Positions 1,751-63,156 of a stretch of DNA of 64,000 nt are shown in pieces. A program made the position numbers and the translations under genes. The notes beneath the pieces were generated by a model that worked only from the letters and a program-made list of their open reading frames with translations, was not told the origin of the DNA and did no database searches. Position 1 is the stretch's first letter. Each line of letters starts with the position of its first letter. This DNA comes from Selaginella moellendorffii (taxonomy: Eukaryota > Plantae > Lycopodiophyta): positions 2,034,107 through 2,098,106 of the forward strand of contig NW_003314276.1 in the NCBI RefSeq assembly GCF_000143415.4, in the 5' to 3' direction.

Positions 1751-1776
1751 TTTAGGGTTTAGGGTTTAGGGTTTAG
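1751..1776 (+). repeat. Interstitial plant telomeric repeat (TTTAGGG)3+TTTAG / telo-box cluster
   Basis: tttagggtttagggtttagggtttag read directly; lies between the two divergent transposon genes. Confidence 0.9.
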
Positions 1777-2805
1777 CAATTCAGTAGCTTGATAAACATG
1801 CAAATACAGAACTTGATGCAAAATCCTTTGATATGTCACAATGCCCCTAGGACCATAAACACATTTCAATAGAGAGGGTCCATTCATTTCATAACTCCTT
1901 ACATAGATCTTGGTGAAACCAGAGTTAGTGAAGTTAGTTTCTTGTGATCCCGCATCTGATTGTGATGTTCCTTTGCAGTGTCGATGGAAAGGTCAATGCA
2001 CACCAAATTGTAAAATCTTGGAGCAAAATAACGGTCGGATCTATGGCAAATGCCCCTGAAACATTGTAAGGCTCGTGTGGTCTCATGTGGTGTCCGATCG
2101 AGATGCTTCTTTGCAGGGTCATCAAGAAGGACATTGTATACCATTCTTTATTTAGCTGAACATCTGGCATTTTTGGAAATACAAGATGCTTTGGAATATC
2201 CAATCATGCATAGTATAAATATAGCGAGGGTATTAAATAATATCCCAATCATGATCTTTCTTTTGGATTTCGCATGCATGCAGTCCAAGGAATGATGACG
2301 TTGCGGATTTCTTTTGGATTTCACGTGCATGCATGCGCGCGGCGATCCAGAAATTAATGGTGGCGCCCAAGTCCGAGGAATGATGACGTTGCGGGATTAC
2401 CAACCGTCGTGACATTTCGCGCGTGTGAGGTTAGGTTTTGCATCGTACTCACGCTCGCACACTCGCGCTCGCATCGCGCTCCCACTCGCGATCACGCTCA
2501 CATTCGCGCTCATCTACCTTCTCTACAGGTTTCTCGTGTGCATCGACGTCCACTTGCGCTTGCATCACACTCGCGCTCGTGTGCATCGGCGTCCACTTCA
2601 AGACACACCCAATTTGTAACTTCGCCGCCAACTCCGCCGCCCACTCCGCCACCCACACACAGCCCACTTGGCGTCCCGGGAGATTTCAGCGCCACTCTCC
2701 AACTGTAAGTGGCAGAGTAGCCTTGCTGCTACGATCCGCTGCACACACAGTGCACATTCGCCAGCGAGTCCGGCCTCGATTGTCACGGCCTTCATTCGGC
2801 TTCAA

Positions 2806-5800: not shown

Positions 5801-8414
5801 CGTTGAAGAAGGACAAATAGACAAGCAATAGGAAAAAAGGAGGTACAAATTATATTTGCAATGGCGTGTGGTCTCATGCCATTCCTTGCAGGAGACACTT
5901 CTTCAAAGGCAAAACAGGCAAGCACCAGCCAAGCTCAAACTGACAGTGGTCATAAAAAGCGAAAGCACGTTGGACAGTCGTCGGGATCATAGGCATTTGA
6001 TTCAAAAAGGAAGAAGGGCAATGAAAAGATGATAGGTAATGCCTCGCAGTTATGGCGTGTGTGCTCATGCCATTCATTGCAGATCAAGGGCTGAGTGAAA
6101 GGAGCCAGTCACCACCTCCTGACTCAGATTCCTATGGCGGACTCCCCTTCCCCAATCTCAATGGAGAGGTACAATGGATGAGGGATGCTTTTCAAGTCAG
6201 GGCCACGTTTTTCTCATCTCATCGTCTTCGAAGGGTGCAAGAACGTGCAGAAACCATGTTAAGACAGTCGGGTGAGGATACGGTCCTAGGTCAAGCACTA
6301 AAACAGGCTATGGATGTCTTGTATTTTGAGATGGAGACTCGGCCAGATGATTTTCCCAAGATGGTCCTGGAAAAACAAGCCATCCAGCCTGAGCAGCCTA
6401 TGGAAGAAATGCAGGAGGGGGATGAGGAGCCAGAGAAAGATAATGAGCAGGAAGAGCAGAAGGACGAAGAGGAGGACAAAGAAGAGGAGGACGAAGAAGA
6501 GGAGGACGAAGAAGAGGAGGACAAAGAGGACTTGGATGGTCCTCACAATGGTGACGATCACAATAACGACGATGACGATGATGATGACGATGGCCAGCCT
6601 GAGGTGGCCAAAGAGCAGCGTAGGAAGGTCATACAAGACAAACCATCAGGTAAATAATAGTACATCCATTCCTAACCTTTTACCATTTCTAACATTGTCC
6701 ATATAGATCGCAGAAGAAATGGTAAGTAGAAATTATTCAGTTGAATTAAGATACAAACTCTAGCCTTTAGTGTCGAGGAAGGATAGTGCCAAGCAAGGGT
6801 CGAAACGTATGTTCAATCCTTCAGAATCAGCAGTGCGCCCAAGTGATATCGGTCCTAGTTCCTCAATAGCAGTTGATGGTAAATACAGTATAATCGATTC
6901 AATGTGCTAATGAGTTTGTTTTTAGTAGCCAGTAGGGAGGATACCATCTCAATCGAAGGGAGATATTTGGACATGCATATGGATCTGCCAATAGACTCTA
7001 CTTGCCTGCAAGAGTCATCAGAGTTGGTGGAGGCTACTATCCATATCAACGCCAAGCAAGCTGACCACGCTCCACTTGATGCTGCCCATACCACTGAGTC
7101 AATCTTGTCCACGTATCCAACTGACGGTGACCAGGCGCCATTGGACCCGCATGAGACCGCCCCAGCCACCGAGCTGGTCGTATCCTCATTTCCAACGTGT
7201 GCCCAATCGTCTGACTACGCGCCGTTGGAACCTCCCTACACTGCCCCTGCTGCCTGTTTGGTCATGTCCACTTTGCCAATGGAGGCACCAGCTGAAATGG
7301 CGTGTGATCACACGCCATCGGAACCACCCCATGCCACTGTTGAGCCAGTTGTACCAGAGTCTACAGCTGAAATGGCATGTGCCCACACGCCATCGGATGC
7401 GATTGACCCCACATTGCAGAGGAGAGTATTTCCACCCTTCACGTTTCCTCGACCAAAACCCTCTAAACGACCATCGGGAGCACCATTCGCTAATATTGTA
7501 GATGGTAAAATTGACTTGTACCATTTTTTATGCTAACGCATTTCATTTCAGAGTCACGGCGAAAGTACTGTATCGTTTTTTATCTGAACGGTGTCCTTTT
7601 CTCCCATGAGCGTGGCTCGTCCTCGAATGTCACTGCACCCTCCAAAGCCTGCGGTCGCAAGTTGGTCAAAAGAGACAGATTCACATTAATCACACGGGAG
7701 AAACTGCGGGATCTAATAATGACCATGCGACACTTAAAACAGAGGGCCGGGTTCAATTTGCAATTGGGAGTTTGGACATCCATGATGTGCCACAATGCAT
7801 TAACGTTGCTACAGATGATGCACGATCAAACGTGAGTAATATTACCATTTGACTTTCTCCTAACGCAGGAGGATTGCTTGACTATGGTCCATGTGAGGGG
7901 TAGCAAGCCCATCTTCGTCAAGCCAGAGGCTGTAGTGATGAACCGGATTGCTAGGTCAAGTGAAATCCTCATCATCGATGACTTGCCGATTAAAACTGCA
8001 GCGAACACGCACACATATGCAGTGCACCCCATCTCTTGCAGTATGGAAACTAGGGAGAAGAAACCGTATGTTCTGGGGGACTTTGCAAAACGGCTTGAAG
8101 CGATGGTGATAGAGAACCGGCCAGTCCAGGAGGTGGCTGCAGAAATCAACCAAATGGCAGATGGAACGGTATATCAGAAGCCATTTGATCGGACAGACAC
8201 CAGTCATCATTTATGGCATGTATATTGTCTAGCTAAGCACTATCCGCATCTCCATAATCTGCTCAACCGGATGGGTTCTTCGACCACTGAACATGAGCGT
8301 GGACGTATTAGAGAAGAGATGGCATTACTATTGGGTCTAAATCCTGATAGTGTGGAGAGTGATGAAATTCCAAGATTATTGTATAGGCGTTGGAGGCAAA
8401 AAATAACAGTCTGA
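2806..8414 (+). pseudogene. Transposon accessory gene, copy 1: ParB-like + MTase-like + acidic linker + FCP1/NIF phosphatase (multi-exon, disrupted)
   Basis: ATG|GTAAGT at 2806-2814. Exons 3048-4226, 4281-5589, 5640-5714, 5771-5842, 5892-6035, 6083-6649, 6707-6721, 6771-6878, 6926-7504, 7552-8414 splice in phase (4911 nt). Lesions: donor GT>AT at 4227; stops at 4950, 5818, 5988, 7833; DLNG>YLNG. Small 5' exons uncertain. Confidence 0.75.
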
Positions 8415-8832
8415 GATGGCATGTATTTATTTAAAAATGTAACTTATTATGGCATGGGGTTCCATGCCATTGTATTAATATTAAAAGACAATTCTTTGAG
8501 AGGATTTGCATTATACTAGAAGTGTTACAGCATGTTATTGGAAGTCTACGAAGTTGTTTTATTAATAAGGGGAAAGTAAAAATTGAATGGGGACTTGGGC
8601 TCCACCTAGACTCGGAGCAACTGAGCCAATATTAAAAGGATGGAAAGAAATTGGACAACGATAACAAGGAGAAGAGAGAGGTGAAGCAATGGCAGGGGGA
8701 GGAGAAGTGATTGAGTAGACATTTCCTTGTTTAAAATAAAATGGCATGTGCCTCAATGCAGTTGAATTTTGTTATATTTATATACTATATAAAGGTTTGG
8801 AAACCTTATGTTACAAGTGGGATAATGACAAT

Positions 8833-8854
8833 TCCCACTTTAACGAAATAGAGC
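8833..8854. repeat. Right terminal inverted repeat, copy 1
   Basis: Identical to 61465-61486; reverse complement of 47779-47800. Confidence 0.9.
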
Positions 8855-10087
8855 TTTTGCTTAGTTGCGTCGTAGTTGTCAAGTTCTACAACTCATTGCT
8901 GGTGCTTCCCATCATTATCTGGGTCACCACACTCGAACTGCATGCTCTGCAGCTTAGGCTATGCCATTCCCATTTCTATTGGGATTCCTTTGGCAAGGGG
9001 TTCTCATGAACCCACTAACATAGCCTCAAGGTATCACACCTTGGCACATTTGGTGTCTCCACACCATCGGCTCCACGAGCTTACCTCTATGACACTTCTC
9101 CTTTGTGTCTAAGTCTTTGTCAAGACCAATACCACTCTTTCTCATGCCAACCATCCGTTAGCACTGCACCATAGAGGTCACACACAACTTTGTGTCAAAG
9201 TTGTTTTCTTTTTTGGGAACACCTTTCCCACAACTTTAGCATGGCACATTTTGCCATCGATGAGATACCCTCTGTTCTCATCCTTGGATCCTATGATCCC
9301 CCCCCCCATCCTTCGTGGGGTACAACACACCTCAGTCCAAATGCTTCCATCAGTCCTTTTAGGACCATCCCCTGACTCTACTTGAGTCATCCAACAGTTT
9401 TGGACTTGGTTAATCCACAGACCCGTAAGGTCCTACTTGTAAGGCACTAACTCACTGGAATACACTTCTTGCATTCCTGTCCTACTCAAAAGGACTATTT
9501 TCACAAGTGTTACTCTGACACTTGATTTTGTTATTTGGGGGCAACTTAGGACTATTTGTCCATGTGATGAGAATACCAACTCATCTCTAAGTACACCCCC
9601 CAACTCCTTGGGTTGTTCCAGCATTTATTAAAGGTAGCCCCAGCTACCATTGCAAGGACTTGAGTCCTCTTTCGTATTTGACCTCCCACAGTCATTACCT
9701 CTGGTCTCACATTCATGAGCACCAACCTTAACTATATGAGGATAATCTTGTGACTCCTTTATTGTTTTGGAATCTACATCTTTCCCGTGATCCCAACTAT
9801 AGTTGTTTATCACAACTACGTTAGCCCATTTGCTGCGTCAAATGCTCATTTGGATCACATCCTCAGCTCTCTGAGGAGACCTTATACTGTTCCCAAGATC
9901 CCAAAGTCGTTCCATTATTGGCCCTTTTCTATCCACCACATTGTGCCCAAGTTCACGCATGAACTTGAGTGGAGAGCCATGTCCTCTCGACATGCTACTC
10001 CTCAAGGATAGGCCCACTCCTAGGACCTTCCGATGCTAACATCAATGGTGATATACTTGAGCACCAATAAAAGTTGGACTAAGGAAC

Positions 10088-26632: not shown

Positions 26633-26634
<2 letters not shown>

Positions 26635-26677: not shown

Positions 26678-26680
<3 letters not shown>

Positions 26681-45371: not shown

Positions 45372-48300
45372 TAGACGAAGTTCGATGTCCTCATCGAACG
45401 GTAAACCATTTTATAAAGTAACACCCGCATGTGTTACCATTTCCATCCTTGGCACCTAGCCAATATTTGTCAATGGTTTGACGTTGAAGGCTCACCATGC
45501 CTTCACCATATTCGTCAATGGTTTGTCACCAAAGGCTCACCATGCCTTGCCTATCCTCTAAGGAGGGTAGTCTCTCCAACTTAGAGACTGATTGGACCAC
45601 ATGTCGTGGTTCTCTCCTTTTATTGGTTTAATTCTCGCTAAACCTCTTAGAGACCCTTCTCTAAGTCAATCCCACTACTCCTTCTCGAGTAGTCTCAATT
45701 TCCATCTATGGAACGTTTGCACCTTGGAACTTTTTACTCTTTGCCTTCTGGAAGTCAATTTCCTAGGTGTCTCCAACACCTTGCTTTGCACTTTTTGTGC
45801 AACTCCACTTCCCCATCTTAGGAAGTTCTTTACTTGAGGGCACCATCATCCTCTCTTCTATTTCGTGCCACATTGGGCACTAAGTTCCATTTATCATACT
45901 TTGTGCTAGGGCTGTCCATGGCCCTATCATTTGGCTACCTTACCGCTCCCTCCTTTAGAGCTTCCACTTTCGCCAAATCGGAGCAATTCAGAATCCATCC
46001 TTGGAAACACACTTCCTTTCCCGCAATTTGTTAGCGTCCAACACATTAGTGTTCCTCGCCTAACTTTGCCACTTGGATTCCTTCCAAGGGATTCCACGGC
46101 CCTATCTTGGCCACTCATCTTTTGCTCCTATCCGTTGATTGTTGCACCAAGCAACATCGAATCTCTACCTCCCTCCTTGAGGTATTCTTTTGATTCCATA
46201 GCAAAGGCTCTGCTTTGCCAAGACTAGGGTGTTCACCCCTAGTAAGTCTCTTTTAGCATCTTCTGCTGTAGGCTCTATCCACGGCCCAACTTTGTGACCC
46301 TCCCATGAGTCTCTTTAGAGACTACTTTCCTTGGACACACTATGCTATCGCAATGACATAGCTCATTTCCCTAAGGTGCTTTCCCCACTTGGTCACCTTG
46401 ACCAAGCCACACCATCATCAATAGTTTAAATCAACACTTTGAACTAGGAACCTTATTCCTTAACCCAAACAAGGACTTTGTCCTTATTTAGCCACAAGAT
46501 CACCTAGTAATCTCACCTCGGCACCTTAACAAGTTTGCCAATAGGTACTAGGTCTTCCAGACCTTTAACTTGTTAACTACGACCCCGGGGACATCCCCCA
46601 CACTTGGCGGTGCGCCCAAGCCAGCCCTTCCGGCCAAGGGTCCATAGCAACTGAGATTGGGTGTCCCTGTCTCATTCACCACGTCCTTGGTGCCATTGGC
46701 ACCAAAGTGTTCAAGTTAGATATGCTGAGCCACACTAAGCAATCTAACCGTGCATCACGACTCTGGGGCATCCCCCGTTTGGCGGTGTGCCCAAGCCAAT
46801 CTCCTCATTGAGAGTCCATGACCACCGAAATATGAGTGTCCTCATATTCCAAACCATCACCACGCCCTAGTGATTTGGGACTCGAACCCAAGCACTAGAG
46901 GGTCGGGACTCAAACCTAACCTCCATATATGCATCTACGGATGGCATCACCCAGGATGCCTGGTGTGACTCCCCACGCCGGTGCACCAACTTATACTCAG
47001 AGCGCGCTACAAATCACAACTTAGGAACCTAGTTCCTCCACACTACCAAGTCCTCTCACTTGACAAGTCTGTGATCATGCATGGACTCTTCCATGCTTGG
47101 CCCCATGGCCCACCCTTTTTGAAGTTATCACCTTCAACTAGGGTATTTGTTCCCCTGACTTGCCAATCTCGCTTGGCAAGTCCTCCGACCACTGAGACAT
47201 GGTTTCTGCACAAGCGTGAAAGCCTTTGATCATCGACTTTCATTCAAAGCCCTCTCTTTGAACACTCGGGAACTACTTCCCTAACCTTGATAGCCTTGCC
47301 TCATGGCAAGCTTCAAGACCATGCTTCTGCTGCGCCACTCTGAATTCACGCGTTCCTTGAACCATTTACGCTTGGCCTTTCTAGGTACTAAGCTACCTAG
47401 AATCCTCTTTGGGAACCTTGAAGGAACTCTGTCCCTTAGCTTGCTAAGGCCTCCCTTTTTGCAAGCTTTCCAATTACCATATAGTCTAACATGGACAATT
47501 CCATATTTTAAACTCTCCATGGCATCACGGTTGCTAGCGGCAACACCCTCAAGCCCCCACTTGATTCTCCACTCCCAGCTGGCATAACCAACCTTGGTTA
47601 TGCCCTTCGATTCCTATGGTTCGGTTCTATCCCCTTACTTCTTGCTTTTGGCTTCACACCTTTCCTTCAATCATTCTCCTCCAGACCAGGAGGATAGCTT
47701 TGCACTTTCTATCATGCCTTAGCAAATATTCTTAGGGATGAACCTACCCGATAGCCTAGAGAGTGGTTCCTCAATCATGCTCTATTTCGTTAAAGTGGGA
47801 TTTATTCAGTAAAATGGGACTAGGTACAAATTTTCAAGTATTTGAAAATGACGTGAAATTATATGTTTTTTGTCCAGGGACTAGACATATCTGGGGCATG
47901 GTGACTAGCGCGGTGACCTTATGTCCAGACTGAGTCCATCTAGTTGTATAATAAATCTCATTGTCAAGGTGAACAAGCCGAATCTGAAGCTAAAGAAGAG
48001 CGATGGCATGCGCGCACACACTATTTGTTTGTTCATTGAGCGTGTGGTGAGCTTTCCAAGATGAACATCATTCCTATTAGCCAGACATATAACTTAATAG
48101 TGAGAACATTTAGATATTATTCAATGTTATCTTTTTCTAACGAATCTAATTGTGAAGGTGTAGCAAGAGGCATTGCTAGTCTGGAGAAGTCATTTAACTC
48201 ATTTGACCCTTAGTGTATTTTCATGAAACTAAATAACATTCATATTATTAAGGAATTTCTCTAGTACCTTTTTTTTACGACATAGAGGCTTGCATTTCTT

Positions 48301-48436
48301 TCAAAGGTGATTTAGTAAAAGGCCTGAGAGCACATGCCATTCTATTTCTCAGACCGGTATTAAGATATACTAGTGCAAAGGGAAAAAGGTATTTGGTGAT
48401 CAAGTAAATGGCATGAGGGCACATGCCATTATAAGC

Positions 48437-48796
48437 CTAAGCGCTAGTGGACACCTCCTTTTTGGTACTCTCAGCGGTACTATCATCCTTCTCCGGGTCA
48501 GTTGTTTTGCTTTGGATTGTTGTCTCTGACGTTACTGGGGCGTTCTCGATAGTTGTTAATGTTGCCGTTTGTTCAGAAAAATGATCACCTGGAGTATAGT
48601 ACGGGGAGTTTGGAAGACTTATATATTCTACATCTTCACCTATCTCCTTCTCCGTCTCCTTTTCTGCCTCACTTACAGATTTTGTGCTTGCCATGAGAAC
48701 GCTCTTCACCCTAAAATATGGAGTTCGTTGTGTTATAAAAGGAAACCAACACACACGCTGCAAGGGAATGATGGTACATAAAGCACGTAAGCCCAC
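48437..48796 (-). CDS. Small acidic/Thr-rich ORF inside the transposon (possible exon of unknown gene)
   Basis: 119-aa ORF with low-complexity E/T/S composition and an upstream TTTTAG acceptor; no recognisable domain. Confidence 0.3.
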   Translation of the reverse strand: MGLRALCTIIPLQRVCWFPFITQRTPYFRVKSVLMASTKSVSEAEKETEKEIGEDVEYISLPNSPYYTPGDHFSEQTATLTTIENAPVTSETTIQSKTTDPEKDDSTAESTKKEVSTSA

Positions 48797-49405
48797 AATA
48801 TGGGTTTATGTGCCATTAATATGGGCCACACGCCATATTATTAGATTTATGCACGTGTGATTGGTAAATGCATATGTCACATCATCTTTGTTTTACCTCA
48901 CACACTATATCAGGCCTAATGAACCATATCACATGTGCGCACATGCTATATATATGGAGAAGTATTATGCAAGGATAGAAATTCAATGCATGATTGTGGA
49001 GAGCAATGGCATGAAGCCACATGCTAAATAACATTTTAGAGAAAGAATTAAAATAAAAACATGCAAACAGTACTAAGTGGACCAAGACTTAGAAGTGCAC
49101 AATTGAATGAGGTATTTTTAATAAATACTTCACTCACCTCATATAGGAATGGCTACCACTCTCAAATGGCGTATCGCCTCATGCCATCACCTCGCAATTT
49201 GTTATAACAATCCGATAAATTTATATTCGGCTTGTTCACCTTGAACTTTAAGTAAGATTTGCTAGAACAACTAAGAATTTATACTTGTTATTTGTATCAT
49301 CTCACCTAGGAATGGCGTAAGGCCACATGCCATCACGCCTCCTCTGATTCAGATTCGGATTGTTCACCTTGAAATAAAATACATTAGAAACTTAGTAAAG
49401 GAATA

Positions 49406-52400
49406 TTAATGAATCTCACCTTGAACCCGGGTTATGAATGCTCTTGCTGCATCTCTTGCATGGTCTGGCAAGGTGATGGTGGCACTCTGCTTCCGGATCC
49501 AACCATGCACAACATTATCCACCGATATGCTCATGCTGGGATCCCTTGGATTCAGCACCCATCTCTTTTCTAGGCAATCGTTCGTATATCCGGAACTTGG
49601 CTTGAACCACTCCACAGTTACATTGAAGGAGTTAGTTTCCGCGTCCTCCTCTGCATCAGTGATGCAGCGCCCCACCCATATGATTTGTTTTTTATTACTG
49701 GGTCTGACAAGCACGACCATTCCTTTGCAGACCTGTACTGGATTGAATGCTGAATCCGGCTTCTTGTTCCTCGGCCCACAATAGTGATCCTCAACATCGT
49801 TATCTATCACTGCATTTCCAGAGGACATTGTTCCGCTACTATCTGGTGCTCTGGGTTCTGGCCAAAAGGACTCTTCCAATTCTTCATATACAACCGGCCC
49901 ATTTTGGATAGCAGATATAATCTTCTCCCAGTATTCGAGCAAAGGCTTGCACCTCTGAAAATAGGATTCTCCACCAAACACTAACCCCCTCTTCCAGAAG
50001 GCAATATGCTGTCTAATCCCGGCCACTATACTTTCCTGGTCTTTGAGTCCATCCGGGTGCATCGGCCGTGGGGAACCCTGAGGAATCATAGGTTCCCCAG
50101 TTATGGGATCTCTCTTGAAGAGTTCAATGCCGTCCACTGGCAGCCACACTGTGTCCCATTCTCTCATCTTGTACCTCATCACTGGAGCACCGTCACACAT
50201 GCTGAAATGAAACTGAAGAGGCTTGGAGTGGCCAATCAGCGTTTCGGATCCGTCCCTGATGTAGCCTCTTACAAACCCCTTAAAGTCTGGAACCTCTGTC
50301 AGAAGTGCAGCTTCAACAGTGCCTTTGATGCAATTTTGGAATTCATCGTAGAGTTGTGGGAGGGTGAGGACATTGGATCGCCGGAGAGACTCTGCCAGGT
50401 GACTGAACATGGCATCGACGTCTTCATGAGTGTGCCCAACCATGAGAAAGCCAAGTGTAACCGTTTCAAATATGCCTTTGGCAACAAGCATCGCCAAGTA
50501 CGCGAAGACGTACATGTTTTTGTTCTCACTGCCAGCATTGTCTGTTTGGAGCAAAAGATGGGGTGGAAGGCCACATCGGCCGCAAGAACTTCCTTGAGAT
50601 TCTGCTTCGTTTGGATGAGGCTGTGCATTCACCGGGCGACCAGCCTCGTCGGAATGGCATGAGGCCTCACGTGATAACCCTACAATCTGACGGCCAACAT
50701 ATTCACTGGGATGGCATGGGGCCCCACGCGATACTGCAAGCCTTTGCTCCTCCTCCAGCTGAACCCTGTATGGGGTTCGATCGACAAGGGCCTTATGCAA
50801 GGGTTGGCCGTTCAGCTCAGTCTGCGCACTTTGCAGAGACCTTAAGTGTTTTGCTAGGGACGCAATCATCATGTTTGCACCCCCGCCACCCCATAGAGGT
50901 ACAAAGAAGTTCCCATAGTTCTGGGCACCATGCCCATGAGCGATTATGCCAAACAGAGACACAGGCAGCTGCATGGATGAAGAGATTGCCTTGGGGGCAG
51001 GATTGAGTCGAGGTAAGCACGTCTTTTTCTGGTCCATTTTGTCGTGGATGATGCAGAGGTAAGAGTCAGGTCTCTCCATGGAGAGAATCCTGTTATGATA
51101 ATATGCAGTCCTGCAGCTTCTCTGCTCAATGTTGTGGTCGAGCCGCCTTCTAACCAACGTCTCTCGCTCTTGAGCGCTGCAAGAATTCTTCGACAAAGCC
51201 ATTTTGATAGCAGTGCACTCGTCACACTTTGAAAAGCTGGAGTACTTTCCTATACTCACATCCCTGAACTTGTTGCTCCACAATCTACTAAATCTAGATT
51301 GGCTCAGCTTCCTGTAGCCATTACTCTGGAGTTCCTGATTCACATATTCCAATATGGCCCCCTTGGTATACATGGAAGGGAGAACTCGTTGGGTGTCTCG
51401 TGTTCCATCTTCCAGGAGGCGGGTTTTATGTGGTTGCTGCTCGCTACATGTCTCGACAAACCTCTTGAAGATTGCCTCTCCATATACAACATGACCCCTG
51501 GTTTTGTGCGTACCGTCGTTCCCATGGACTGCCTGTTGAACCCTTTGTTCCTCGAACTCAGTTTTGATTCTGTAGAATGTGGTTCGAGGGACTCCATAAA
51601 TGATTCTCCATGCCTTCATGCAGACCAAACCCCTCTGGAAGACCATGCCCCCCACCTGATGTTCTGAAGCATCAACAGATGACCGTAATACCTCATACAC
51701 AAAATTGCGAGCTGCCTTCCAGGACAATGTCTTGTATCTTGCTCTCTCCTCTTCAATAGCATCCCAATCAGCATGTTGACAGCACCTCCTCTTGCAACAA
51801 GCAACTGTCGAGACCATTCGAACCTCCATCGCCATTTTCTGCCTTTTCGGTTCGTTGCTCAGATCCCTTTGGCTGCGCTTTAGGAAGGTGTACTTTCTTT
51901 TCCCATGAAGAGATGTTCTGTCATCAGTTGTAGTGGTGTTTGATTGTGAATCCTTCACATTCTCAAACACTAAGTGCCTCAATTTCCACCGCACAATGCT
52001 TCCAATAGTCAGACTGTTTTCTTCTATGTCAACAACCTCTAAAATCGCAACTCCAATATCATCCCAGCCCAATTCTTGATTAGCAACCGCATCTCTTGGA
52101 TCGACAACTGTGGCTAAGCCCTCAGCTACCACCTCCCCCTCGGGGTTGTTTAGAAACACTTTTGCCTGAATCCATGTAGCACGGTTCTTAAGATCCACGG
52201 AGGGAACATGCGTCGCACTTGCGCTGTCCCCAACATCTGCTTTCTTTTGAAGATTTTTCAAGGCAACAACAACATTTACCCCGACGACCATCTCTCCTCG
52301 TTCAATAGCGACCACATTCCCATCGAAGACAGTCTCTACTGATACAGCAGCATTGCCTTCCCCAAGCCTTTGACAGTGTATAACAAAGTTCCGATCCATA

Positions 52401-52474
52401 GACACAAGAGTCCCTTTTGCAACTCTCTTCCCACCATTCAAAATGTAAACCTTTTCCCCAACCCTGAAGGCCAT
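49406..52474 (-). CDS. DDE/D transposase, Sola-like catalytic core, 1022 aa
   Basis: Candidate triad IIHDKMDQ / LQTDNAGSENKN / FLMVGHTHEDVDAMFS; CDEC..H and CCxxxCC motifs; HTH-like AWRIIYGVPRTTFYRI; two N-terminal VA(K/E)G..LG..V repeats; C-terminal beta-barrel-like segment; lies between TIRs. Confidence 0.8.
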   Translation of the reverse strand: MAFRVGEKVYILNGGKRVAKGTLVSMDRNFVIHCQRLGEGNAAVSVETVFDGNVVAIERGEMVVGVNVVVALKNLQKKADVGDSASATHVPSVDLKNRATWIQAKVFLNNPEGEVVAEGLATVVDPRDAVANQELGWDDIGVAILEVVDIEENSLTIGSIVRWKLRHLVFENVKDSQSNTTTTDDRTSLHGKRKYTFLKRSQRDLSNEPKRQKMAMEVRMVSTVACCKRRCCQHADWDAIEEERARYKTLSWKAARNFVYEVLRSSVDASEHQVGGMVFQRGLVCMKAWRIIYGVPRTTFYRIKTEFEEQRVQQAVHGNDGTHKTRGHVVYGEAIFKRFVETCSEQQPHKTRLLEDGTRDTQRVLPSMYTKGAILEYVNQELQSNGYRKLSQSRFSRLWSNKFRDVSIGKYSSFSKCDECTAIKMALSKNSCSAQERETLVRRRLDHNIEQRSCRTAYYHNRILSMERPDSYLCIIHDKMDQKKTCLPRLNPAPKAISSSMQLPVSLFGIIAHGHGAQNYGNFFVPLWGGGGANMMIASLAKHLRSLQSAQTELNGQPLHKALVDRTPYRVQLEEEQRLAVSRGAPCHPSEYVGRQIVGLSREASCHSDEAGRPVNAQPHPNEAESQGSSCGRCGLPPHLLLQTDNAGSENKNMYVFAYLAMLVAKGIFETVTLGFLMVGHTHEDVDAMFSHLAESLRRSNVLTLPQLYDEFQNCIKGTVEAALLTEVPDFKGFVRGYIRDGSETLIGHSKPLQFHFSMCDGAPVMRYKMREWDTVWLPVDGIELFKRDPITGEPMIPQGSPRPMHPDGLKDQESIVAGIRQHIAFWKRGLVFGGESYFQRCKPLLEYWEKIISAIQNGPVVYEELEESFWPEPRAPDSSGTMSSGNAVIDNDVEDHYCGPRNKKPDSAFNPVQVCKGMVVLVRPSNKKQIIWVGRCITDAEEDAETNSFNVTVEWFKPSSGYTNDCLEKRWVLNPRDPSMSISVDNVVHGWIRKQSATITLPDHARDAARAFITRVQGEIH

Positions 52475-53805
52475 TCTGAAAGTGCAGAAAAGAAGTTAAG
52501 ACCATACAAAAAATGATTGGAGAATGGCCTAAATCATAACATACCAAACAACCTCAATAGCATGAGGCCACATGCCATTATTCAAACATGCTATTGACAC
52601 CCACGTGAAATTTCGCATTCACAAAATTGGCATGAGGCCTCATGCCATCTTGATATACACACAGCTGCAGGCAAGTAAAAACATACATGACAATACGCTA
52701 GCCATGAAATTGCAAGGGCCCAAGATGGTATGTGGCCTCATGCCATTTCTAAATGTGGTCCTAAGCCATTCCATAGTGAACATACCAGGAAGCACAAGTG
52801 CCGAATATCAAGAGGAAGCGGTAGCCACACAAAAGACAGTGCCGCTCGCAACACCGCAACTACTCGTAGCGCCGCTCGGAACACCGCAACTGCTCGTAGC
52901 GCCGCTCGCACAAACTGCCACTCGCATAAACTGCCGCTCGCAATGGCGCTCGCAATGCCGCAACCGCTCGTAGACGCATAAACCACAGCCCACAACGCCG
53001 CTTACACAAGCAGCGCTCACTGCGCTCAGCGGAACCAAGAACACGGCGCACAAAAATGATAGACCTAGGAATGAGTTCGAGAATTCAAAAATAACACACG
53101 CTTGAACGTCACATCAAATCCTCTGACAAACCAGATCTTATGATTCCTCTGACAAATTTCAAACTGAGTAGCTTCTAGACTTTGCTGTCGGAGGTTGAAC
53201 TTTGTCACATCATGTCCTTGCCTCGATCCAGCTGTGCCATGTCAGTGATTCGAACTTTGCCATGCCATGTCAGCGATCCGCGCCAAGATTATTCGCCGTG
53301 TAAAGGAATAATTATGCTGTGTGTGTACGTCCATTTATGGCAATATAAGGCCACACGCCATTCAAAGAATAATGCTCGACATAAGGCCACATGCCATTCA
53401 AAGAATAATGCTAGTCGAGCATTTTTTGGTGCATTTTTGGGTTCAAAATTGCATGAGCCCACACGCTATAAAGTTTACTTGTACCAAAAATAGAAACAGC
53501 TTTATTTACTTGGGAATTTAAGTGGTTGAGGCATTTTTAAACTTACAAACACATGCCCTACTTACATTCTTTTGGTTGCCTAAAATTCAAAAATATTATA
53601 AACCTTTCTTTTTGCATTTTCAATGTTTTCAATTATGGTTTTTGATTTTCGTAGGACCAGCCTAGTAATCTATTTGCATCCCGTCATGTTTATAGCTAGC
53701 TTTCGTTCGTCCCCTTTGCTAGCCTGAGATACATCTGCTCGGCATCTGCCTCTTACAGCATTTGCCCAGAAAGGGCATCTTTCTTCACGCAGCATTTGCC
53801 ACATG

Positions 53806-53838
53806 TTTAGGGTTTAGGGTTTAGGGTTTAGTGTTTAG
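53806..53838 (+). repeat. Interstitial telomeric repeat, copy 2
   Basis: (TTTAGGG)3 TTTAGTG TTTAG; one more unit than copy 1. Confidence 0.9.
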
Positions 53839-54398
53839 CAATTCAGTAGCTTGATAAACATGCAAATACAAAACTTGATGCAAAATCCTTTGATATGTCA
53901 CAATGCCCCTAGGACCATAAACACATTTCAATAGAGAGGGTCCTTTCATTTCATAACTCCTTACGTAGATCTTGGTGAAACCAGAGTTAGTGAAGTTAGT
54001 TTCTTGTGATCCCGCATCTGATTGTGATGTCCCTTTGCAGTTTCGATGGAAAGGTCAATGCACACCAAACTGTAAAATCTTGGAGCAAAATAACGGTCGG
54101 ATCTATGGCAAATGCCCCTGAAACATTGTAAGGCTCGTGTGGTCTCATGTGGTGTCCGATCGAGATGCTTCTTTGCAGGGTCATCAAGAAAGACATTGTA
54201 TACCATTCTGTAAAATCTAGTTGCGATCTAACGGTTGGATCTCCAGAAAACTCAAAAAAATCTCGCGCGTGTCAGAATATCCTAGGAATATACTCCTATG
54301 TGCCCCTGAAAATGGCATGCGGCCCCACGCCATTCAAGAGATAACGCCAGATGACGCCGAGAATTTTTTGGTGCATTTTTTGGGTTCAAAATTGCATG

Positions 54399-54506
54399 NN
54401 NNNNNNNNNNNNNNNNNNNNNNNNNNNNNNNNNNNNNNNNNNNNNNNNNNNNNNNNNNNNNNNNNNNNNNNNNNNNNNNNNNNNNNNNNNNNNNNNNNNN
54501 NNNNNN
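54399..54506. other. Assembly gap (N run)
   Basis: Ns within an internally repeated palindrome-bearing segment. Confidence 0.99.
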
Positions 54507-55440
54507 CACTGAAAGGGAATTTTTCTCCATTCAGCATTTGGCCCTGAAAATGGCATGCGCCCACACGCCATTCAAGGAATAACGCCACAAGACGCCTGGA
54601 TTTTTGGGTTTAAAATGTTTAGGGTTTTTTGGGTTTTTTCAAAATATTTTGGGTTCAACGTTTTTTGGGTTTCTTTGGTTCAAAATTGCATGAGCCCACA
54701 CGCTATAATATTGATTTGAGAGAAAAATAGAAACAGATAGAATTTCTTTATTTAGATGAACATCTGCCATTTTTGGAAATACAAGATGCTTTGGAATATC
54801 CAATCATGCATGGTATAAATATAGCGAGGGTATTAAATGATATCCCAATCATGATCTTTCTTTTGGATTTCGCGTGCATGCAGTCCGAGGAATGATGACG
54901 TTGCGGATTTCTTTTGGATTTTGCGTACTTGCATGCGCGCGGCAATCCAGAAATTAATGGTGGCGCCCAAGTCCGAGGAATGATGACATGGCGGGATTAC
55001 CAACCGTTGTGACATTTCGCGCGTGTGAGGTTAGGTTTTGCATTTTGCTTTGTACTCGCGCTCGCACACTCGCGCTCGCGCTCGCATCACACTTGCGCTC
55101 CCGCTCGCATCGCGCGATCACGCTCACTTCTCTACAGGTTTCTCGTGTGCATCGGCGTCCACTCGCGCTTGCATCACACTCGCGCTCGCATCGCGCTCGT
55201 GTGCATCGGCGTCCACTTCAAGACACACCCAGTTTGTAACTTCGCCGCCAACTCTGCCGCCCACTCCGCCACCCACACGCAGCCCACTTGGCGTCCCGGG
55301 AGATTTCAGCGCCACTCTCCAACTGTAAGTGGCAGAGTAGCCTTGCTGCTACGATCCGCTGCACACACAGTGCACATTCGCCAGCGAGTCCGGCCTCGAT
55401 TGTCACGGCCTCGATTGTCACGGCCTCCATTCGGCTTCAA

Positions 55441-58400
55441 ATGGTAAGTCTTTTAGACGAAGTAGAAAATGGCATGAGGCCACATGCCATTCAGTAGCAA
55501 CATTGGCATGCACCGATTGGGCTCTCGAGTGCAGTCCAGTTACAGATGGCGTGTAGCCTCACGCCATCTTAGGATGCAGCCTCAAGACATCTGATGCAGT
55601 GGTGAATGGCGTGTGGCCTCACGTTATTTCCAGCTGCTAGCTTTTCATCTGTCAGCTCTAATTGTTGTGCATTTCTGAACAGGCGAGGAATTGCGTTCTT
55701 CTTCCAGCCACTGTCAATGTGGATGCAGAGAAGGGGGAGGAGCTCACCAGTTGGACTTTCGGGATGGAAGGCGAGGATCTGATGCTGTACAACACAGATG
55801 GTGGGAGAAAAGAATGCATGGGGATCCTCATCCAAGTGACAGACACTCCATGCAGTTCCATGCAAGAATATGGACTGGCACTTGTGGTAGAGACAGCGTC
55901 CGCCTTCAAGATCCACCTTGCACATCCTAGCGGCTTCCCGGAGGGGGGCAGCGGCTATGAGGAATTCCTAGAGGGAGCTAGGGAGAGGTTGTCCAGGAGG
56001 CCCACAATTTCAAAGACGCTGCGGGTCTATGAAGATCACATAGAATCCACGGACCTCACCTACGGCGATGTTCAAAAACTATATTCCAACATTAAGCCGT
56101 TGAGAGTGCCTCCAGTTTGCGAAGCGAAGGGGAAGGGGGTCAATCTGGAAATTACCCCGAAGCAGAAAAGGGTGGTCAAGCTCAAGCCGACGTCCGACTC
56201 TGCTGCTCCAAAAAAGAAGCTACTCGGTGATGCCATTGCCTCGGGTTCGAACACTACACCCACCAAAAAGAAGAGCCGCAAAGAGCAGAAAGAGCAAGAA
56301 GAGGCAGCAAAAATCGTCGCAGATAATAGTACTTGTTACTATTCCAACAAAGTATATACAATCGACGTGAGCCGTATCGAGATCCAAAGCAAATACAACC
56401 ATAGGCTAGTATCTGATGAGTGGGTGGAGAAACTGAAGCAGAAGATGCTGGCAAGTCCAGTAACACCCGACATCGCAGACGTGATCCCCTACTACCGAAC
56501 AATGAAGGGCGAGACGAAGTTTCCAGACTTGATCAATAGGAAGGTGTTGGACGATCAGAACATCCGGTTCTATGCCGTCTCCGGGCAGCATTCTAGCTTG
56601 GCGATGCAACAGATAGTTGTGGATATTATGGTGGGCGAGGAGGTGAAGAAAGTCTTCAAGACAAGAGTTGTCCGCCTGATAAAAGGCAACTCGCCCCTCC
56701 GATCTATCATATACATCTCCCACGCGCAGAATGTCAAGCAAGAAACGTGCTACAAATCAGGTCTGCACGAGACATTGGCACGAACACGGAAGCTCTGGGT
56801 TCAACTGAAGAAGCCACAAAAACCAGGACAAGGACGTGCACTAGCAACTAGCGCCTGGCAGGTAAGCCTCGTTGCATGTGGCATAGCATGTGGCCTCACG
56901 CCATTTCCATTGCAGGAATTCTCGAGTCTTCTCTCGAAAACACTGGGGGTCAATGACACACTTAGCATCCATAACATTCTACTCGCGACAAAAGTTGTTT
57001 TTGACAAATGGGTAGATGTGCTAAGGAGGTACCATGACGGGGAGTTGCTAAACTCAATGGGTGTGGAGGACGGCCGGAAGCCCAATGATTTGAAGCTCAA
57101 CGCCTTGCGTTTCTCGCGGTCTCTAGACGACGACGACCTTTTGACAGTGGCTAATGCTCTTCTACGTGGTGAGGTAGTCTTCAACAAGACCAAAATGACT
57201 CCCGGCCATATTGTGACATACAAGGACTTGTGCACGACTCTGAGAGCTCGTGCGCTATTGAAGGATTGGATCTTCGAGCAAGTGGCCGTGGCGAGGGTGA
57301 GCATCGACACCACGCAAGAGATGATAGAAGAGCTGGAGTTGTCAAATGAAGACATCGACGAGTACGTGAAGGGGGCCCCCAAGTTCATCGATCTGCTGCG
57401 GGATGCCACGAAAAGTAAAGCTGAGAAGTTGGATTAGTATCCAAATTTCATTAAGAGGGATGTCGACCGCCGGCTTCAGAAACAGCTCGACCCTGCAGCA
57501 GAGGCCTATCGAGAACCTTACCGGGTATACGTGAATTCGGATGAGGATCAAAGGTGGAAGAGCATCGTTTCCCGCGGAGATGAGCAGGTCAAGAACATCT
57601 TTTGTGTGATGGACTTCACAAACGAGGAGATCACTCATGCAGACGAAGTCAGCTCCATCATTGACTTAATGGTGGGACTTGCGGAGGTGGAATCTTCAGT
57701 CCACTATATGATCTACGACTCCGAATCCTATCACAAGTTCTGGAAGGCCTTGAACGAGGTGAAGGCTCGGTTGAAAGGCAAGGAGATGCGGGAGATCCAT
57801 GGGATAATGGCTAAGAAGAAGATACCGACGAATGTCCGCATCTTCACAGTCGCCCTTGTTATTGGTCCTACAGCAGAGTGGGACTGGAGTGACTTCCCAG
57901 CTTCGTTCAACAAAGCCGATCGAATTGATCTGAGGGAGGTTAATTTACCCGTGCCTGAGGAACTGAAGACGGCTATGGAGCTTTCGAATCCAAAGAAAGC
58001 TCCAGGTGCAGCATGGGAAATGCTCAGCTGGGTCTTCAACGCAATAGCGGGTGACTCCAAGGGCAAATGCGTTGTCGAGTACAACTGCGGCGGACTATTC
58101 TTTCGAGCCGCACTACTCAAGGGTGTCCCGTGTGTTGCGGTGACAAACTCCATTGAAGAGGTGACTTCAATGGAGCATATAATTACAGTTGCCAAAGAAA
58201 AACAGTATCTTCTCTACGAACCTGGTGAGTACGCACTTTAAGTTTAAATGTTATCTCACAAGCTCTGTATGCAGGAGCGTGGCCACCCCCAGATGCTGAA
58301 ACGGCGTTAACAGCTACTGATGTTAGGCCGAGGTCACAACCTGCACAAGGTAAGGTCACGTGAGGCCTCACGCCATTTTGATTATAGATCGTTGTGAATA

Positions 58401-61046
58401 TTCAGACACGAGGACTGAAAAGTGCACTGGTGGCACGTCGAAGAAGGACAAACAGACAAGCAATAGGAAAAAAGGAGGTACAAATTATATTTGCAATGGC
58501 GTGTGGTCTCATGCCATTCCTTGCAGGAGACACTTCTTCAAAGGCAAAACAGGCAAGCACCAGCCAAGCTCAAACTGACAGTGGTCATAAAAAGCGAAAG
58601 CACGTTGGACAGTCGTCGGGATCAGAGGCGTTTGATTCGAAAAGGAAGAAGGGCAACGAAAAGATGATAGGTAATGCCTCGCGGTTATGGCGTGTGTGCT
58701 CATGCCATTCATTGCAGATCAAGGGCTGAGTGAAAGGAGCCAGTCACCACCTTCTGACTCAGATTCCTATGGCGGACTCCCCTTCCCCAATCTCAATGGA
58801 GAGGTACAATGGATGAGGGATGCTTTTCAAGTCAGGGCCACGTTTTTCTCATCTCGTCGTCTTCGAAGGGTGCAAGAACGTGCAGAAACCATGTTAAGAC
58901 AATCGGGTGAGGATACGGTCCTAGGTCACGCACTAAAACAGGCTATGGATGTCTTGTATTTTGAGATGGAGACTCGGCCAGATGATTTTTCCAAGATGGT
59001 CCTTGAAAAACAAGCAATCCAGCCTGAGCAGCCTATGGAAGAAATGCAAGAGGGGGATGAGGAGCCAGAGAAAGATAATGAGCAGGAAGAGCAGAAGGAC
59101 GAAGAGGAGGACAAAGAAGAGGAGGACGAAGAAGAGGAGGATGAAGAAGAGGAGGACGAAGAGGACTTGGATGGTCCTCACAATGGTGACGATCACAATA
59201 ACAACGATGACGATGATGACGACGATGGCCAGCCTGAGGTGGCCAAAGAGCAGCGGAGGAAGGTCATACAAGACAAACCATTAGGTAAATAATAGTACAT
59301 CCATTCCTAACCTTTTACCATTTCTAACATTGTCCATGTAGGTTGCAGAAGAAATGGTAAGTAGAGATTATTCAGTTGAATTAAGATACAAACTCTAGCC
59401 TTTAGTGTCGAGGAAGGATAGTGCCAAGCAAGGGTCAAAACGTATGTCCAATCCTTCAGAATCAGCAGTGCGCCCAAGTGATATCGGTCCTAGTTCCTCA
59501 ATAGCAGTTGATGGTAAATACAGTATAGTCGATTCAATGTGCTAATGAGTTTGCTTTTAGTAGCACGGGAGGATACCATCTCAATCGAAGGGAGATATTT
59601 GGACATGCATATGGATCCGCCAGTGGACTCTACTTGCCTGCAAGAGTCATCAGAGCTGGTGGAGGCTACTATCCATATCAACGCCAAGCAAGCTGACCAC
59701 GCTCCACTTGATGCTACCCATACCACTGAGTCAATCTTGTCCACGTATCCAACTGATGGTGACCAGGCGCCATTGGACCCACATGAGGCCGCCCCAGCCA
59801 CCGAGCCGGTCGTATCCTCATTTCCAACGTGTGCCCAATCGTCTGACTATGCGCCGTTGGAACCTCCCTACACCGCCCCTGCTGCCTGTTCGGTCATGTC
59901 CACTTTGCCAACGGAGGCACCAGCTGAAATGGCGTGTGATCACACGCCATCGGAACCACCCCATGCCACTGTTGAGCCAGTTGTACCAGAGTCTACAGCT
60001 GAAATGGCATGTGCCCACACGCCATCGGATGCGATTGACCCCACATTGCAGAGGAGAGTATTTCCGCCCTTCACGTTTCCTCGACCAAAACCCTCATAAT
60101 GACCATCGGGAGCACCATTCGCTAATATTGTAGATGGTAAAATTGACTTGTACCATTTTTTATGCTGACGCATTTCATTTCAGAGTCACGGCGAAAGTAC
60201 TGTATCGTTTTTGATCTGAACGGTGTCCTTTTCTCCCATGAGCATGGCTCATCCTTGAATGTCACTGCACCCTCCAAAGCCTGCAGTCGCAAGTTGGTCA
60301 AAAGAGACAGATTCACATTAATCACACGGGAGAAACTGCGGGATCTAATAATGACCATGCGACACTTAAAACAGAGGGCCGGGTTCAATTTGCAATTGGG
60401 AGTTTGGACATCCATGATGCGCCACAATGCATTAACATTGCTACAGATGATGCACAATCAGACGCGAGTAATATTACCATTTGACTTTCTCCTAACGCAG
60501 GAGGATTGCTTGACTATGGTCCATGTGAGGGGTAGCAAGCCCATCTTCGTCAAGGCAGAGGCTGTAGTGATGAACCGGACTGCTAGGTCAAGTGAAATCC
60601 TCATCATCGATGACTCGCCGATTAAAACTGCAGCGAACACACACACATATGTAGTGCACCCCATCTCTTGCAGTATGGAAACTAGGGAGAAGAAACCGTA
60701 TGTTCTGGGGGACCTTGCAAAACGGCTTGAAGCGATGGTGATAGAGAACCGGCCAGTCCAGGAGGTGGCTGCAGAAATCAACCAAATGGCAGATGGAACG
60801 GTATATCAGAAGCCATTTGATCGGACAGACACCAGTCATCATTTATGGCATGTATATTGTCTAGCCAAGCACTATCCGCATCTCCATAATCTGCTCAACC
60901 GGATGGGTTCTTCGACCACTGAACATGAGCGTGGACGTATTAGAGAAGAGATGGCATTACTATTGGGTTTAAATCCTGATAGTGTGGAGAGTGATGAAAT
61001 TCCAAGATTATTGTATAGGCGTTGGAGGCAAAAAATAACAGTCTGA
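55441..61046 (+). pseudogene. Transposon accessory gene, copy 2: ParB-like + MTase-like + acidic linker + FCP1/NIF phosphatase
   Basis: Main exon from 55683; introns 56862-56915, 58225-58274, 58350-58405, 58478-58526, 58671-58717 etc.; last exon 60184-61046 has IVFDLNGVL, LGVWTS, ILIIDDSPIK; stops at 57435 and 60097. Confidence 0.78.
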
Positions 61047-63156
61047 GATGGCATGTATTTATTTAAAAATGTAACTTATTATGGCATGGGGTTCCATGCC
61101 ATTGTATTAATATTAAAAGACAATTCTTTAAGAGGATTTGCATTATACTAGAAGTGTTACAGCATGTTATTGGAAGTCTACGAAGTTGTTTTATTAATAA
61201 GGGGAAAGTAAAGATTGAATGGGGACTTGGGCTCCACCTAGACTCGGAGCAACTGAGCCAATATTAAAAGGATGGAAAGAAATTGGACGACGATGACAAG
61301 GAGAAGAGAGAGGTGAAACAGTGGCAGGGGGAGGAGAAGTGATTGAGTAGACATTTCCTTGTTTAAAATAAAATGGCATGTGCCTCAATGCAGTTGAATT
61401 TTGTTATATTTATATACTATATAAAGGTTTGGAAACCTTATTTTACAAGTGGGATAATGACAATTCCCACTTTAACGAAATAGAGCTTAATCCAGGTATG
61501 CTCACCCTATAATCCCATACACCGGGATTACGTTGTTGCTTACGGGCCTTTGCATGCCCATTGCTAGCCTTGCCAAAATTCCATTTTTGGCTTTGTCCAA
61601 TTCGAGTAGACAGTCTTCTCCTGCCTCCGCCACTTTGGACATTTGGATAGCACCTACTATCCATCATTCGCTAAGGACTTAGTCCCTTGGGCCTTATCTA
61701 CTACCCTCGCGACATCAAACACCACCTCCTAGTGTTCTAGAGTGTTCGGGTGTCCCAATGACGGCTTCCTTGACAATGAGTATTTCCTTTTATGACATTG
61801 ACTTACTATATCGCAACATAAGCAACTTATCCCCCGTAAGGGTATATCCAACTTCCCTATGCCATTAAAAAGGCTTGGGTAGCTACCTTCTACCCATTTA
61901 ACCAATTATTTTGCACCTCTTGTTTAGTTGCCTCGTAATTGTCAAGTTCTACAACTCATTGCTGGTGCTTCCACACCTCCATCATTATCTGGGTCACCAC
62001 ACTCGAACTGCATGCTCTGCAGCTTAGGCTATGCCATTCCCATTTCTATTGGGATTCCTTTGGCAAGGGGTTCTTATGAACCCACCAACATAGCCTCAAG
62101 GTATCACACCTTGGCACATTTGGTGTCTCCACACCATCGGCTCCACAAGCCTACCTCTATGACACTTCTCCTTTGTGTCTAAGTCTTTGTCAAGACCAAT
62201 ACCACTCTTTCTCATGCCAACCATCCGTTAGCACTGCACCATAGAGGTCACACACAACTTTGTGTCAAAGTTGTTTTCTTTTTTGGGAACACCTTTCCCA
62301 CAACTTTAGCATGGCACATTTTGCCATCGATGAGATACCCTCTGTTCTCATCCTTGAATCCTATGATCCCCCCCCCATCCTTCGTGGGGTACAACACACC
62401 TTAGTCCAAATGCTTCCATCAGTCCTTTTAGGACCATCCCCTGACTCTACTTGAGTCATCCAGCAGTTTTGGACTTAGTTAATCCACAGACCCGTAAGGT
62501 CCTACTTGTAAGACACTAGCTCACTGGAATACACTTCTTACATTCCTGTCCTACTCAAAAGGACTATTTTCACAAGTGTTACTCTGACACTTGATTTTGT
62601 TATTTGGGGGCAACTTAGGACTATTTGTCCATGTGATGAGAATACCAACTCATCTCTAAGTACACCCCCTAACTCCTTGGGTTGTTCCAGCATTTATTAA
62701 AGGTAGCCCCGGTTACCATTGCAAGGATTTGAGTCCTCTTCCGTATTTGACCTCCCACGATCATTACCTCTGGTCTCACATTCATGAGCACCAACCTCAA
62801 CTATATGAGAATAATTTTGTGACTCCTTTACTGTTTTGGAGTCTACATCTTTCTCGTGATCCCAACTATAATTGTTTATCACAACTACGTTAGCCCATTT
62901 GCTGCGTCAAACGCTCATTTGGATCACATCCTCAGCTCTCTAAGGAGACCTTATACTGTTCCCAAGATCCCAAAGTCGTTCCATTATTGGCCCTTTTCTA
63001 TCCACCACATTATGCCCAAGTTCACGCATGAACTTGAGTGGAGAGCCATGTCCTCTCGACATGCTACTCCTCAAAGATAGGCCCACTCCTAGGACCTTCT
63101 GATGCCAACATCAATGGTGATATACTTGAGCACCAATAAAAGTTGGACTAAGGAAC

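Follow-up and report, generated by a model that had tools for sequence, protein, structure and literature searches.

A decayed gene for a predicted ParB, methylase-like and NIF fusion in a Sola-like transposon of Selaginella moellendorffii: a possible self-binding anti-silencing scaffold

Introduction

What protein was encoded by the chain of broken open reading frames (ORFs) that lies beside a transposase gene in the lycophyte Selaginella moellendorffii, and what might it have done for the transposon that carries it? The chain occupies 55441-61046 of a window of 64,000 nucleotides (the whole stretch analysed, positions 2,034,107 to 2,098,106 of contig NW_003314276.1), and all coordinates given here count from the first letter of that window. 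A preliminary description made from the letters alone had joined the pieces into a single fusion of ParB-like, methyltransferase-like and FCP1-phosphatase domains. The reading favoured here, by a modest lean rather than with assurance, is that they form a decayed accessory gene of a multi-copy Sola-like transposon, whose product would have been a catalytically blunted scaffold binding its own element and countering its silencing. The anatomy of the element and of the gene product is very probable; the step of self-binding and anti-silencing falls a little short of an even chance. The best clues to function are the transposase, the element ends and a palindrome spread over the whole element, which the preliminary description did not name.

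The transposon and its accessory gene

The element is a transposon of 13,712 bp (47777-61488) that has terminal inverted repeats (TIRs) as well as a 4-bp target-site duplication (TSD). The empty site, in which 47772 is joined to 61489, occurs in contigs of all four runs, one run has different flanks at both ends of the element, and contigs of runs X4 and X6 start or turn loose at 47777. The element is multi-copy, and its second, partial copy in the window is called copy 1 here, the complete one being copy 2. The accessory gene and the transposase gene are divergent and both lie between the TIRs (Table 1). The transposase has a CxxC motif at residue 416, D478, D645 and GHTHEDVD at 680-687, and the layout of CxxC followed by D/D/GH..D is kept in an alignment with 10 homologues of 27-97% identity; by eye, it is like that of the Sola2 transposases in the supplement of PMC3627910. 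The Sola superfamily is described as having a TSD of 4 bp (PMC12477816). With such a TSD, TIRs and a DDD-type transposase that carries CxxC before its first Asp and a GH...D motif, the element fits the Sola superfamily, and DUF7869 probably corresponds to Sola, although the term DUF7869 was absent from the literature searched. Two β-rich repeats similar to each other lie in the N-terminus of the transposase (52474-51950, minus strand), which weakly matches Transposase_23 (E 0.037), and several homologues of the transposase carry PF26133. Between the two genes lies a telomere-type TTTAGGG repeat (53806-53832), which differs by 7 nt among copies.

The accessory gene lies at 55441-61046 in copy 2 and at 2806-8414 in copy 1, the copies in the window being 2.4% apart. 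Eleven exons are predicted, a lone 3-nt ATG exon and ten others, and removal of the ten introns gives a single frame, whose coding sequence measures 4911 nt in copy 2 and is 4914 nt long in copy 1, for a product of about 1,636 aa. The ~1,640 residues first proposed were thus close to the mark, and the 4911 nt quoted for copy 1 is the correct sum of its ten exons when the ATG exon is left aside. The same description had given ten exons separated by 47-57-nt GT-AG introns. This holds for the nine introns of copy 2 after the first (54, 50, 56, 49, 47, 57, 49, 47 and 47 nt), which are in phase, and all introns of copy 2 are GT-AG; it fails at the intron-2 donor of copy 1, which is AT instead of GT, and it missed the eleventh exon, the ATG that stands in front of a first intron of 239 nt. 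Introns as short as these are typical of Selaginella. Retention of intron 2 would keep the frame, but the intron is probably spliced out, because the homologues argue for its removal: an S. moellendorffii RefSeq model has the residues WQ|EF where this junction falls, and the unspliced ORF calls of several homologues stop a few residues past it. The ten junctions and the single mRNA are predictions from the frame and the splice signals. Two runs of uncertain type, maybe of DNA and not RNA, contained no splice joint, and contigs of run X19 pass unspliced across introns 1 and 10, which speaks neither for nor against splicing. Upstream of the ATG, a 40-bp stretch (55322-55361) is matched by many contigs that then diverge; it resembles the 3' region of the large-subunit rRNA and is possibly a fragment of rRNA taken up into the 5' untranslated region, with no match in Rfam, the scan of which returned nothing real.

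Both window copies of the gene are dead, decayed pseudogenes, since each has internal stops, three in copy 2 (57435, 60097 and 60100) and five in copy 1. The preliminary description was right that wherever one copy has a stop, the other has a sense codon (8/8), and in DNA run X1 the best-supported differences mostly turn the three stops of copy 2 into sense codons, which supports the gene model from outside the window. The coding sequences of the two copies differ at 116 positions, with 97 transitions, 73 of them at CG or CHG sites, which suggests silencing pressure on the element. A raw pN/pS of 0.45 was dropped as evidence of selection after a context-matched neutral simulation, in which the synonymous differences (44 against 38 expected, P=0.14) and the nonsense counts both match neutrality.

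Table 1. Features of the transposon and its accessory gene, in window coordinates
Feature	Position	Strand	Basis or remark
Left TSD, AATC	47773..47776	.	Empty-site joint 47772>61489; 4 letters fit either side
Left TIR, 24 bp, one mismatch to right TIR; 22-bp perfect core 47779-47800	47777..47800	+	Inverted-repeat comparison
Intact intronless DUF7869 (Sola-like DDD) transposase ORF, 1022 aa	49406..52474	-	Pfam PF25273, E 5.8e-42
25 dispersed copies (at most 4 mismatches) of the 22-bp palindrome ATGGCRTGWGGCCWCAYGCCAT	48319..61102	.	21 non-coding
Exon 1 (ATG only), then 239-nt intron with three palindromes	55441..55443	+	Predicted
Exon 2: N-terminal region, basic linker, predicted ParB/Srx-fold domain (~56322-56750; SGQHS at 56580)	55683..56861	+	AF2, Foldseek, VIA, family alignment
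Exon 3: conserved helical region (~56916-57434), predicted N6/N4-methylase-like domain (~57513-58212)	56916..58224	+	Motif IV position reads DFTN, motif I VEYNCGG; copy 2 has a stop at 57435
Exons 4-10: low-complexity E/D/S/P-rich linker of ~520 aa	58275..60136	+	Copy 2 stops at 60097, 60100
Exons 4-10 individually	58275-58349, 58406-58477, 58527-58670, 58718-59284, 59342-59356, 59406-59513, 59561-60136	+	
Exon 11: FCP1/NIF-family HAD domain (DLNGV 60213, GVWTS 60399, IDDSP 60606) and C-terminal tail	60184..61046	+	Pfam PF03031
Right TIR	61465..61488	-	Inverted-repeat comparison, contigs
Right TSD, AATC	61489..61492	.	
Second, partial element copy	1..8856	+	Accessory gene 2806-8414; left part outside window

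Domains of the accessory product

All the motifs quoted in the preliminary description lie where it placed them, and its three guesses at domain families have stood. The N-terminal domain is predicted to have the ParB/Srx N-terminal fold. In an alignment-guided AlphaFold2 (AF2) model with a mean pLDDT of 74, the 30 Foldseek matches listed all belong to the ParB/Srx superfamily or are related entries (best E 6.8e-4), and the best 8 of 18 VIA matches are ParB/Srx proteins (top Z 9.4 over 100 aligned residues, rmsd 3.2), the best clearly unrelated match having a Z of 3.4. A Z of 9.4 is middling by itself, but the top eight matches are all of one superfamily. The structures matched are those of Noc, ParB, PadC, KorB, sulfiredoxin, SbnI and SerK. 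Sequence profiles are blind to this domain, with Pfam, NCBIfam, PHROGs, PADLOC and PDB sequences all blank. HMMER matched 17 proteins, 14 of them credible; P0027, P0035 and P0040 were dropped as repeat-driven. In the alignment of the domain, P, A, F, GQH, R, N and R are invariant. At the position of the Box-II (GxxR) Arg the family reads GQH[S/T], with Ser or Thr in all 19 aligned rows. This Arg is described as necessary for NTP binding in ParB-fold proteins (PMC12704722), and its loss weakens a reading as CTP clamp. The family-conserved R241, R328 and N350 might substitute for the lost residue.

ParB-type CTPase clamps have a helix-turn-helix DNA-binding domain and a C-terminal dimerisation domain. 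Here a conserved helical region follows the ParB-like domain in the family alignment; a model of 641 aa folded from the single sequence was too poor to use (pLDDT 34). After it comes a predicted β-class N6/N4-methylase-like domain, permuted so that motif IV precedes motif I. The family profile compared with 11 N6/N4 methyltransferases (MTases) gave an HHalign probability of 80%, an E of 1.4e-5 and a score of 43.6, against at most 19.6 in 100 shuffles, the significant aligned part being the C-terminal 58 columns. The window domain scores 28 bits with a profile built without it, and 200 shuffles reach at most 2.2. When the S. moellendorffii homologue was compared through its Atlas model, N6_N4_Mtase clusters made up 8 of 10 matches and ParB_N-bearing clusters 3 of 10, only one match meeting the naming bar, and the nearest structures include phage and bacterial ParB-methylase fusions. 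It is as a fold and family that the methylase is recovered: the catalytic [D/S/N]PP[Y/F] motif is absent in 6 of 6 family rows, where the motif IV variants are DFTN (the reading in the window), DLTH, DSAN, DLRR and DATT.

The C-terminal domain matches the Pfam profile PF03031 (NIF) with an E of 7.6e-6 and 26.1 bits, above the cut-off of 21.8. It keeps the nucleophile Asp, the Thr/Ser of motif II and the DD of motif IV, while its motif I is DLNGV (YLNGV in copy 1), with Asn replacing the second Asp of DxDx(T/V). Judged by these motifs, then, each of the three domains appears to be without a usual catalytic residue.

Named homologues come from S. moellendorffii and the liverworts Riccia sorocarpa and Calypogeia fissa; like the TTTAGGG repeats and the CG/CHG decay, they point to a non-seed land plant as host. 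Outside the window, the fusion has its best support in a Riccia sorocarpa protein, KAL3675584.1 (1064 aa), itself a predicted gene model, which has a ParB-like (228-404), a methylase-like and a NIF domain in the same order as the window protein and so corroborates the single fusion protein proposed at the outset. Its N6_N4_Mtase match (E 5.8e-4) is under the cut-off and its NIF match (E 1.9e-5) over it; the latter starts at profile position 36, so that motif I is lacking altogether. ParB_N clusters account for 5 of the 7 Atlas structure matches of the Riccia homologue, none of which reaches the naming bar. No longer homologue came out of word-index searches, their profile version gave one match only, and metagenome contigs, viral contigs and annotated phages yielded no confirmed relative. 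The nearest Atlas feature clusters of the liverwort ParB-like protein, P0041, are fungal DUF3723 proteins (score 0.87, a lead only), hinting that these ParB-like passengers have a fungal branch in DUF3723.

A candidate binding site and the proposed function

The element is strewn with copies of a 22-bp palindrome, ATGGCRTGWGGCCWCAYGCCAT, which has 27 matches with at most two mismatches against none in 100 shuffles. All 38 matches with at most four mismatches lie inside the two element copies of the window. The preference of the copies in copy 2 for non-coding DNA (21/25, P=1.5e-5) extends to introns 1, 2, 4, 5 and 6; they flank both genes and also occur near both element ends, and the GC-containing arms overlap methylatable contexts. 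The four copies in coding sequence (among 59929-59950, 60004-60025 and 50654-50732) mean that the motif has spread into exons too; the two in exon 10 both encode a similar MAC.HTPS peptide.

In the proposed mechanism, the accessory protein would dock on these palindromes of its own element through its ParB and helical part, and the docked scaffold would protect or license the element, keeping it transcribed or transposable against host silencing by methylation. The methylase and phosphatase folds would act as binding modules and not as enzymes. The palindrome is thereby taken to be bound by the accessory protein rather than by the transposase. The ParB-methylase core probably descends from ParB-N6/N4-MTase fusions of phages or prophages and is thus likely of prokaryotic origin. 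A bolder version, which we consider doubtful, would make the gene a member of a widespread and undescribed passenger family of non-seed land plants, in which a phage-derived ParB-methylase became a triple pseudo-enzyme that loads on parS-like palindromes in the introns and promoters of its element and shields them from CG and CHG methylation. The captured NIF domain would read phosphorylation or trap substrates on Pol II or on proteins of chromatin, and the whole would be a sequence-specific anti-silencing system in the manner of ParB/parS, independent of VANC.

Several observations weigh against the self-binding scaffold. In TIR elements, internal repeats classically serve as sites to which the transposase binds, and the palindrome therefore need not belong to the accessory protein. 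A search of the helical region found no helix-turn-helix or other DNA-binding domain and no credible match. An earlier HHalign comparison with fewer homologues (3-6 rows) had no methylase signal, and the strict [DSN]PP[YFW] pattern, found in 7 of the 11 reference MTases, is absent in the other 4, so that loss of canonical residues is no proof of inactivity. The NIF domains of the window and Riccia proteins are not alignable pairwise (blastp E 9.9), and the fusion could therefore have arisen twice, or adjacent genes could have been merged by prediction in both species. Finally, the differences between the two copies fit neutral decay and so carry no sign of selection.

The accessory protein could instead help transposition, through end-pairing, targeting or control of dosage, and play no part in silencing, the palindromes being sites of the transposase, or of both proteins, for assembly of a transpososome. 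The place of the gene between the TIRs, divergent from the transposase, and the palindromes flanking both genes and near both ends are what such a helper would predict, and ParB homologues are described as non-catalytic activators of partner enzymes, a role for which their NTP residues are not needed (PMC13229309). However, palindromes in five introns and in the middle of the element are not where end-binding needs them and resemble the non-coding motifs of VANC, and the methylase-like and NIF domains would go unexplained. A helper of this kind is unlikely.

An active enzyme at the C-terminus is less probable still. The preliminary description had supposed that the ParB module brings an FCP1-type phosphatase to the element, altering the phosphorylation of the Pol II C-terminal domain (CTD) or of chromatin. 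The Pfam match, the retained nucleophile, motif II and motif IV residues and the C-terminal NIF domain of the Riccia protein speak for it. But the second Asp of DxDx(T/V), which is Asn here, is the general base in Fcp1 (PMC4436666), motif I is missing from the Riccia model, no BRCT domain was detected in a Pfam scan of the window proteins, and phmmer found no similarity of the NIF domain to solved Fcp1/Scp1 chains. Nothing in the analysis ties the protein to Pol II, and dephosphorylation of the CTD is poorly supported in view of three losses, those of the Box-II Arg, of the methylase's PPY motif and of the second Asp in DxDxT.

It is also very improbable that there was no single fusion, but a ParB-methylase gene in tandem with a captured host NIF gene, the linker exons being an artefact of frame fitting. 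The low complexity of the linker, for which no homologue is among the proteins matched, and the NIF domains that do not align pairwise speak for it. Against this, nine canonical introns of close size keep one frame in both copies, and the Riccia model has the same order within one protein. Exonic indels among the family copies are in frame as well: 5 of 5 listed are multiples of 3, compared with 2 of 6 outside the exons (contigs of the runs), when 12 of 13 indels are listed and two adjacent insertions are scored as one 3-nt event. Four of the five in-frame exonic indels fall in linker exons, namely 4, 7 and 10.

That the methylase-like domain is still active, as a non-canonical writer of N4-methylcytosine (4mC) or N6-methyladenine marking its own element, as proposed for Ectocarpus Sola1-1, is the least probable account. 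In its favour, liverwort and lycophyte proteins share the fold, 5 of 6 aligned rows have an Asp where motif IV is expected (by inspection), and 4mC writers of bacterial origin are described in Marchantia and rotifers (PMC8885841). Against it, no family member examined has PPY, motif I in the window protein is without the FxGxG form, and the rotifer enzyme needs SPPY for activity (PMC8885841).

Surroundings of the element

The transposon is inserted in an element with long terminal repeats (LTRs; 43674-45358 and 63173 onward). The LTRs at 43674-45358, 63173-64000 and 10104-11809 begin with TG and end with CA, are ~1.7 kb long and contain internal 12-bp tandem arrays. The family has a primer-binding-like site on the minus strand, and no pol ORF was seen in its ~4.1-kb internal part. 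Both transposon copies sit within copies of it. The right end of copy 1 meets the host ~430 bp further along than that of copy 2, and copy 1 is therefore either an independent insertion or was followed by an adjacent deletion after duplication. Elsewhere in the window there are three His/Pro-rich ORFs, almost identical to one another and each predicted to contain a membrane segment (22401-23231, 33880-34680 and 41179-41958, minus strand), placed in direct and inverted duplications, and a fragment of a plant C2H2 zinc-finger gene (25750-26823, minus strand; PF13912, E 2.6e-9), duplicated near 37100-38300.

Comparison with known systems

The design of a transposon passenger with ParB and methylase domains is already published for algal transposons and has been known since 2025. 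In the Ectocarpus element Sola1-1_Ec32, a gene on the opposite strand encodes a 1104-aa protein with a ParB-like and an N4/N6-methylase domain, for which the proposal is that it binds the element encoding it and modifies that DNA (PMC12477816). Both are large Sola elements with a 4-bp TSD, AA...TT-type termini and an accessory gene for ParB-like and N4/N6-methyltransferase domains on the strand opposite to the transposase. The Selaginella element differs in its land-plant host, its length (13.7 against 21.5 kb) and its TIRs (24 against 282 bp), and its protein, which was compared by architecture, in its degenerate methylase and ParB motifs, its added acidic linker and NIF domain and its size (~1,636 against 1,104 aa).

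PAG2 and PAG3 of red-algal Plavaka elements are similar in that a ParB-like accessory protein is encoded beside inverted repeats, with an N6-methylase domain in the same elements and self-binding proposed (bioRxiv 10.1101/2025.02.11.637652). These elements belong to another transposase superfamily, and their ParB-2OG oxygenase and methylase-SET fusions are in separate genes (bioRxiv 10.1101/2025.02.11.637652); their repeats form tandem arrays beside the gene, whereas here they are dispersed through introns.

Fusions of ParB and methylase are described as common in phages (PMC12704722), and the order of a ParB N-terminal domain and then a β-class methylase fold is shared with phage and prophage ParB-N6_N4-MTase fusions (PMC12704722, PMC4738411). 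The NTP residues of phage ParB are not needed for it to activate a DNA-modifying partner (PMC13229309). The Selaginella protein differs from the phage and prophage fusions in its introns, linker and NIF domain, none of which they have. Such fusions usually keep the Box-II Arg and the catalytic motifs. With the FCP1/SCP (NIF) HAD phosphatases, the C-terminal domain shares the PF03031 match over the cut-off, the first Asp, the Thr/Ser and the DD; it departs from them in DxN for DxD and in the BRCT domain, which was not detected in the window proteins.

The proven functional analogue is VANC of the VANDAL Mutator elements, also a factor encoded by the element, with short motifs enriched in the non-coding DNA of that element (PMC10398659). 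The proteins and transposases are unrelated, and the activity of VANC is demonstrated (PMC10398659), whereas that of the Selaginella protein is proposed. According to the Bostrychia preprint, VANC is the sole transposon protein demonstrated to bind and de-silence its own element (bioRxiv 10.1101/2025.02.11.637652).

No land-plant report of the accessory protein was found in the literature searched; the original Sola paper, Iyer et al. 2011, Repbase and the bioRxiv supplements may mention plant members. What is new here is the land-plant family, the apparent loss of three catalytic signatures, the NIF fusion common to the liverwort model and the candidate binding site embedded in introns. ParB-type passengers have so far been proposed as self-binding anti-silencers in algae only, and the family extends this design to a lycophyte and a liverwort. 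Because the candidate site is defined to its 22 bp and the multi-copy element has clear ends, it becomes directly testable whether a ParB fold in a eukaryote recognises its own element. If the scaffold reading is true, these transposons would have, beside that of VANC, a second and prokaryote-derived route to sequence-specific anti-silencing.

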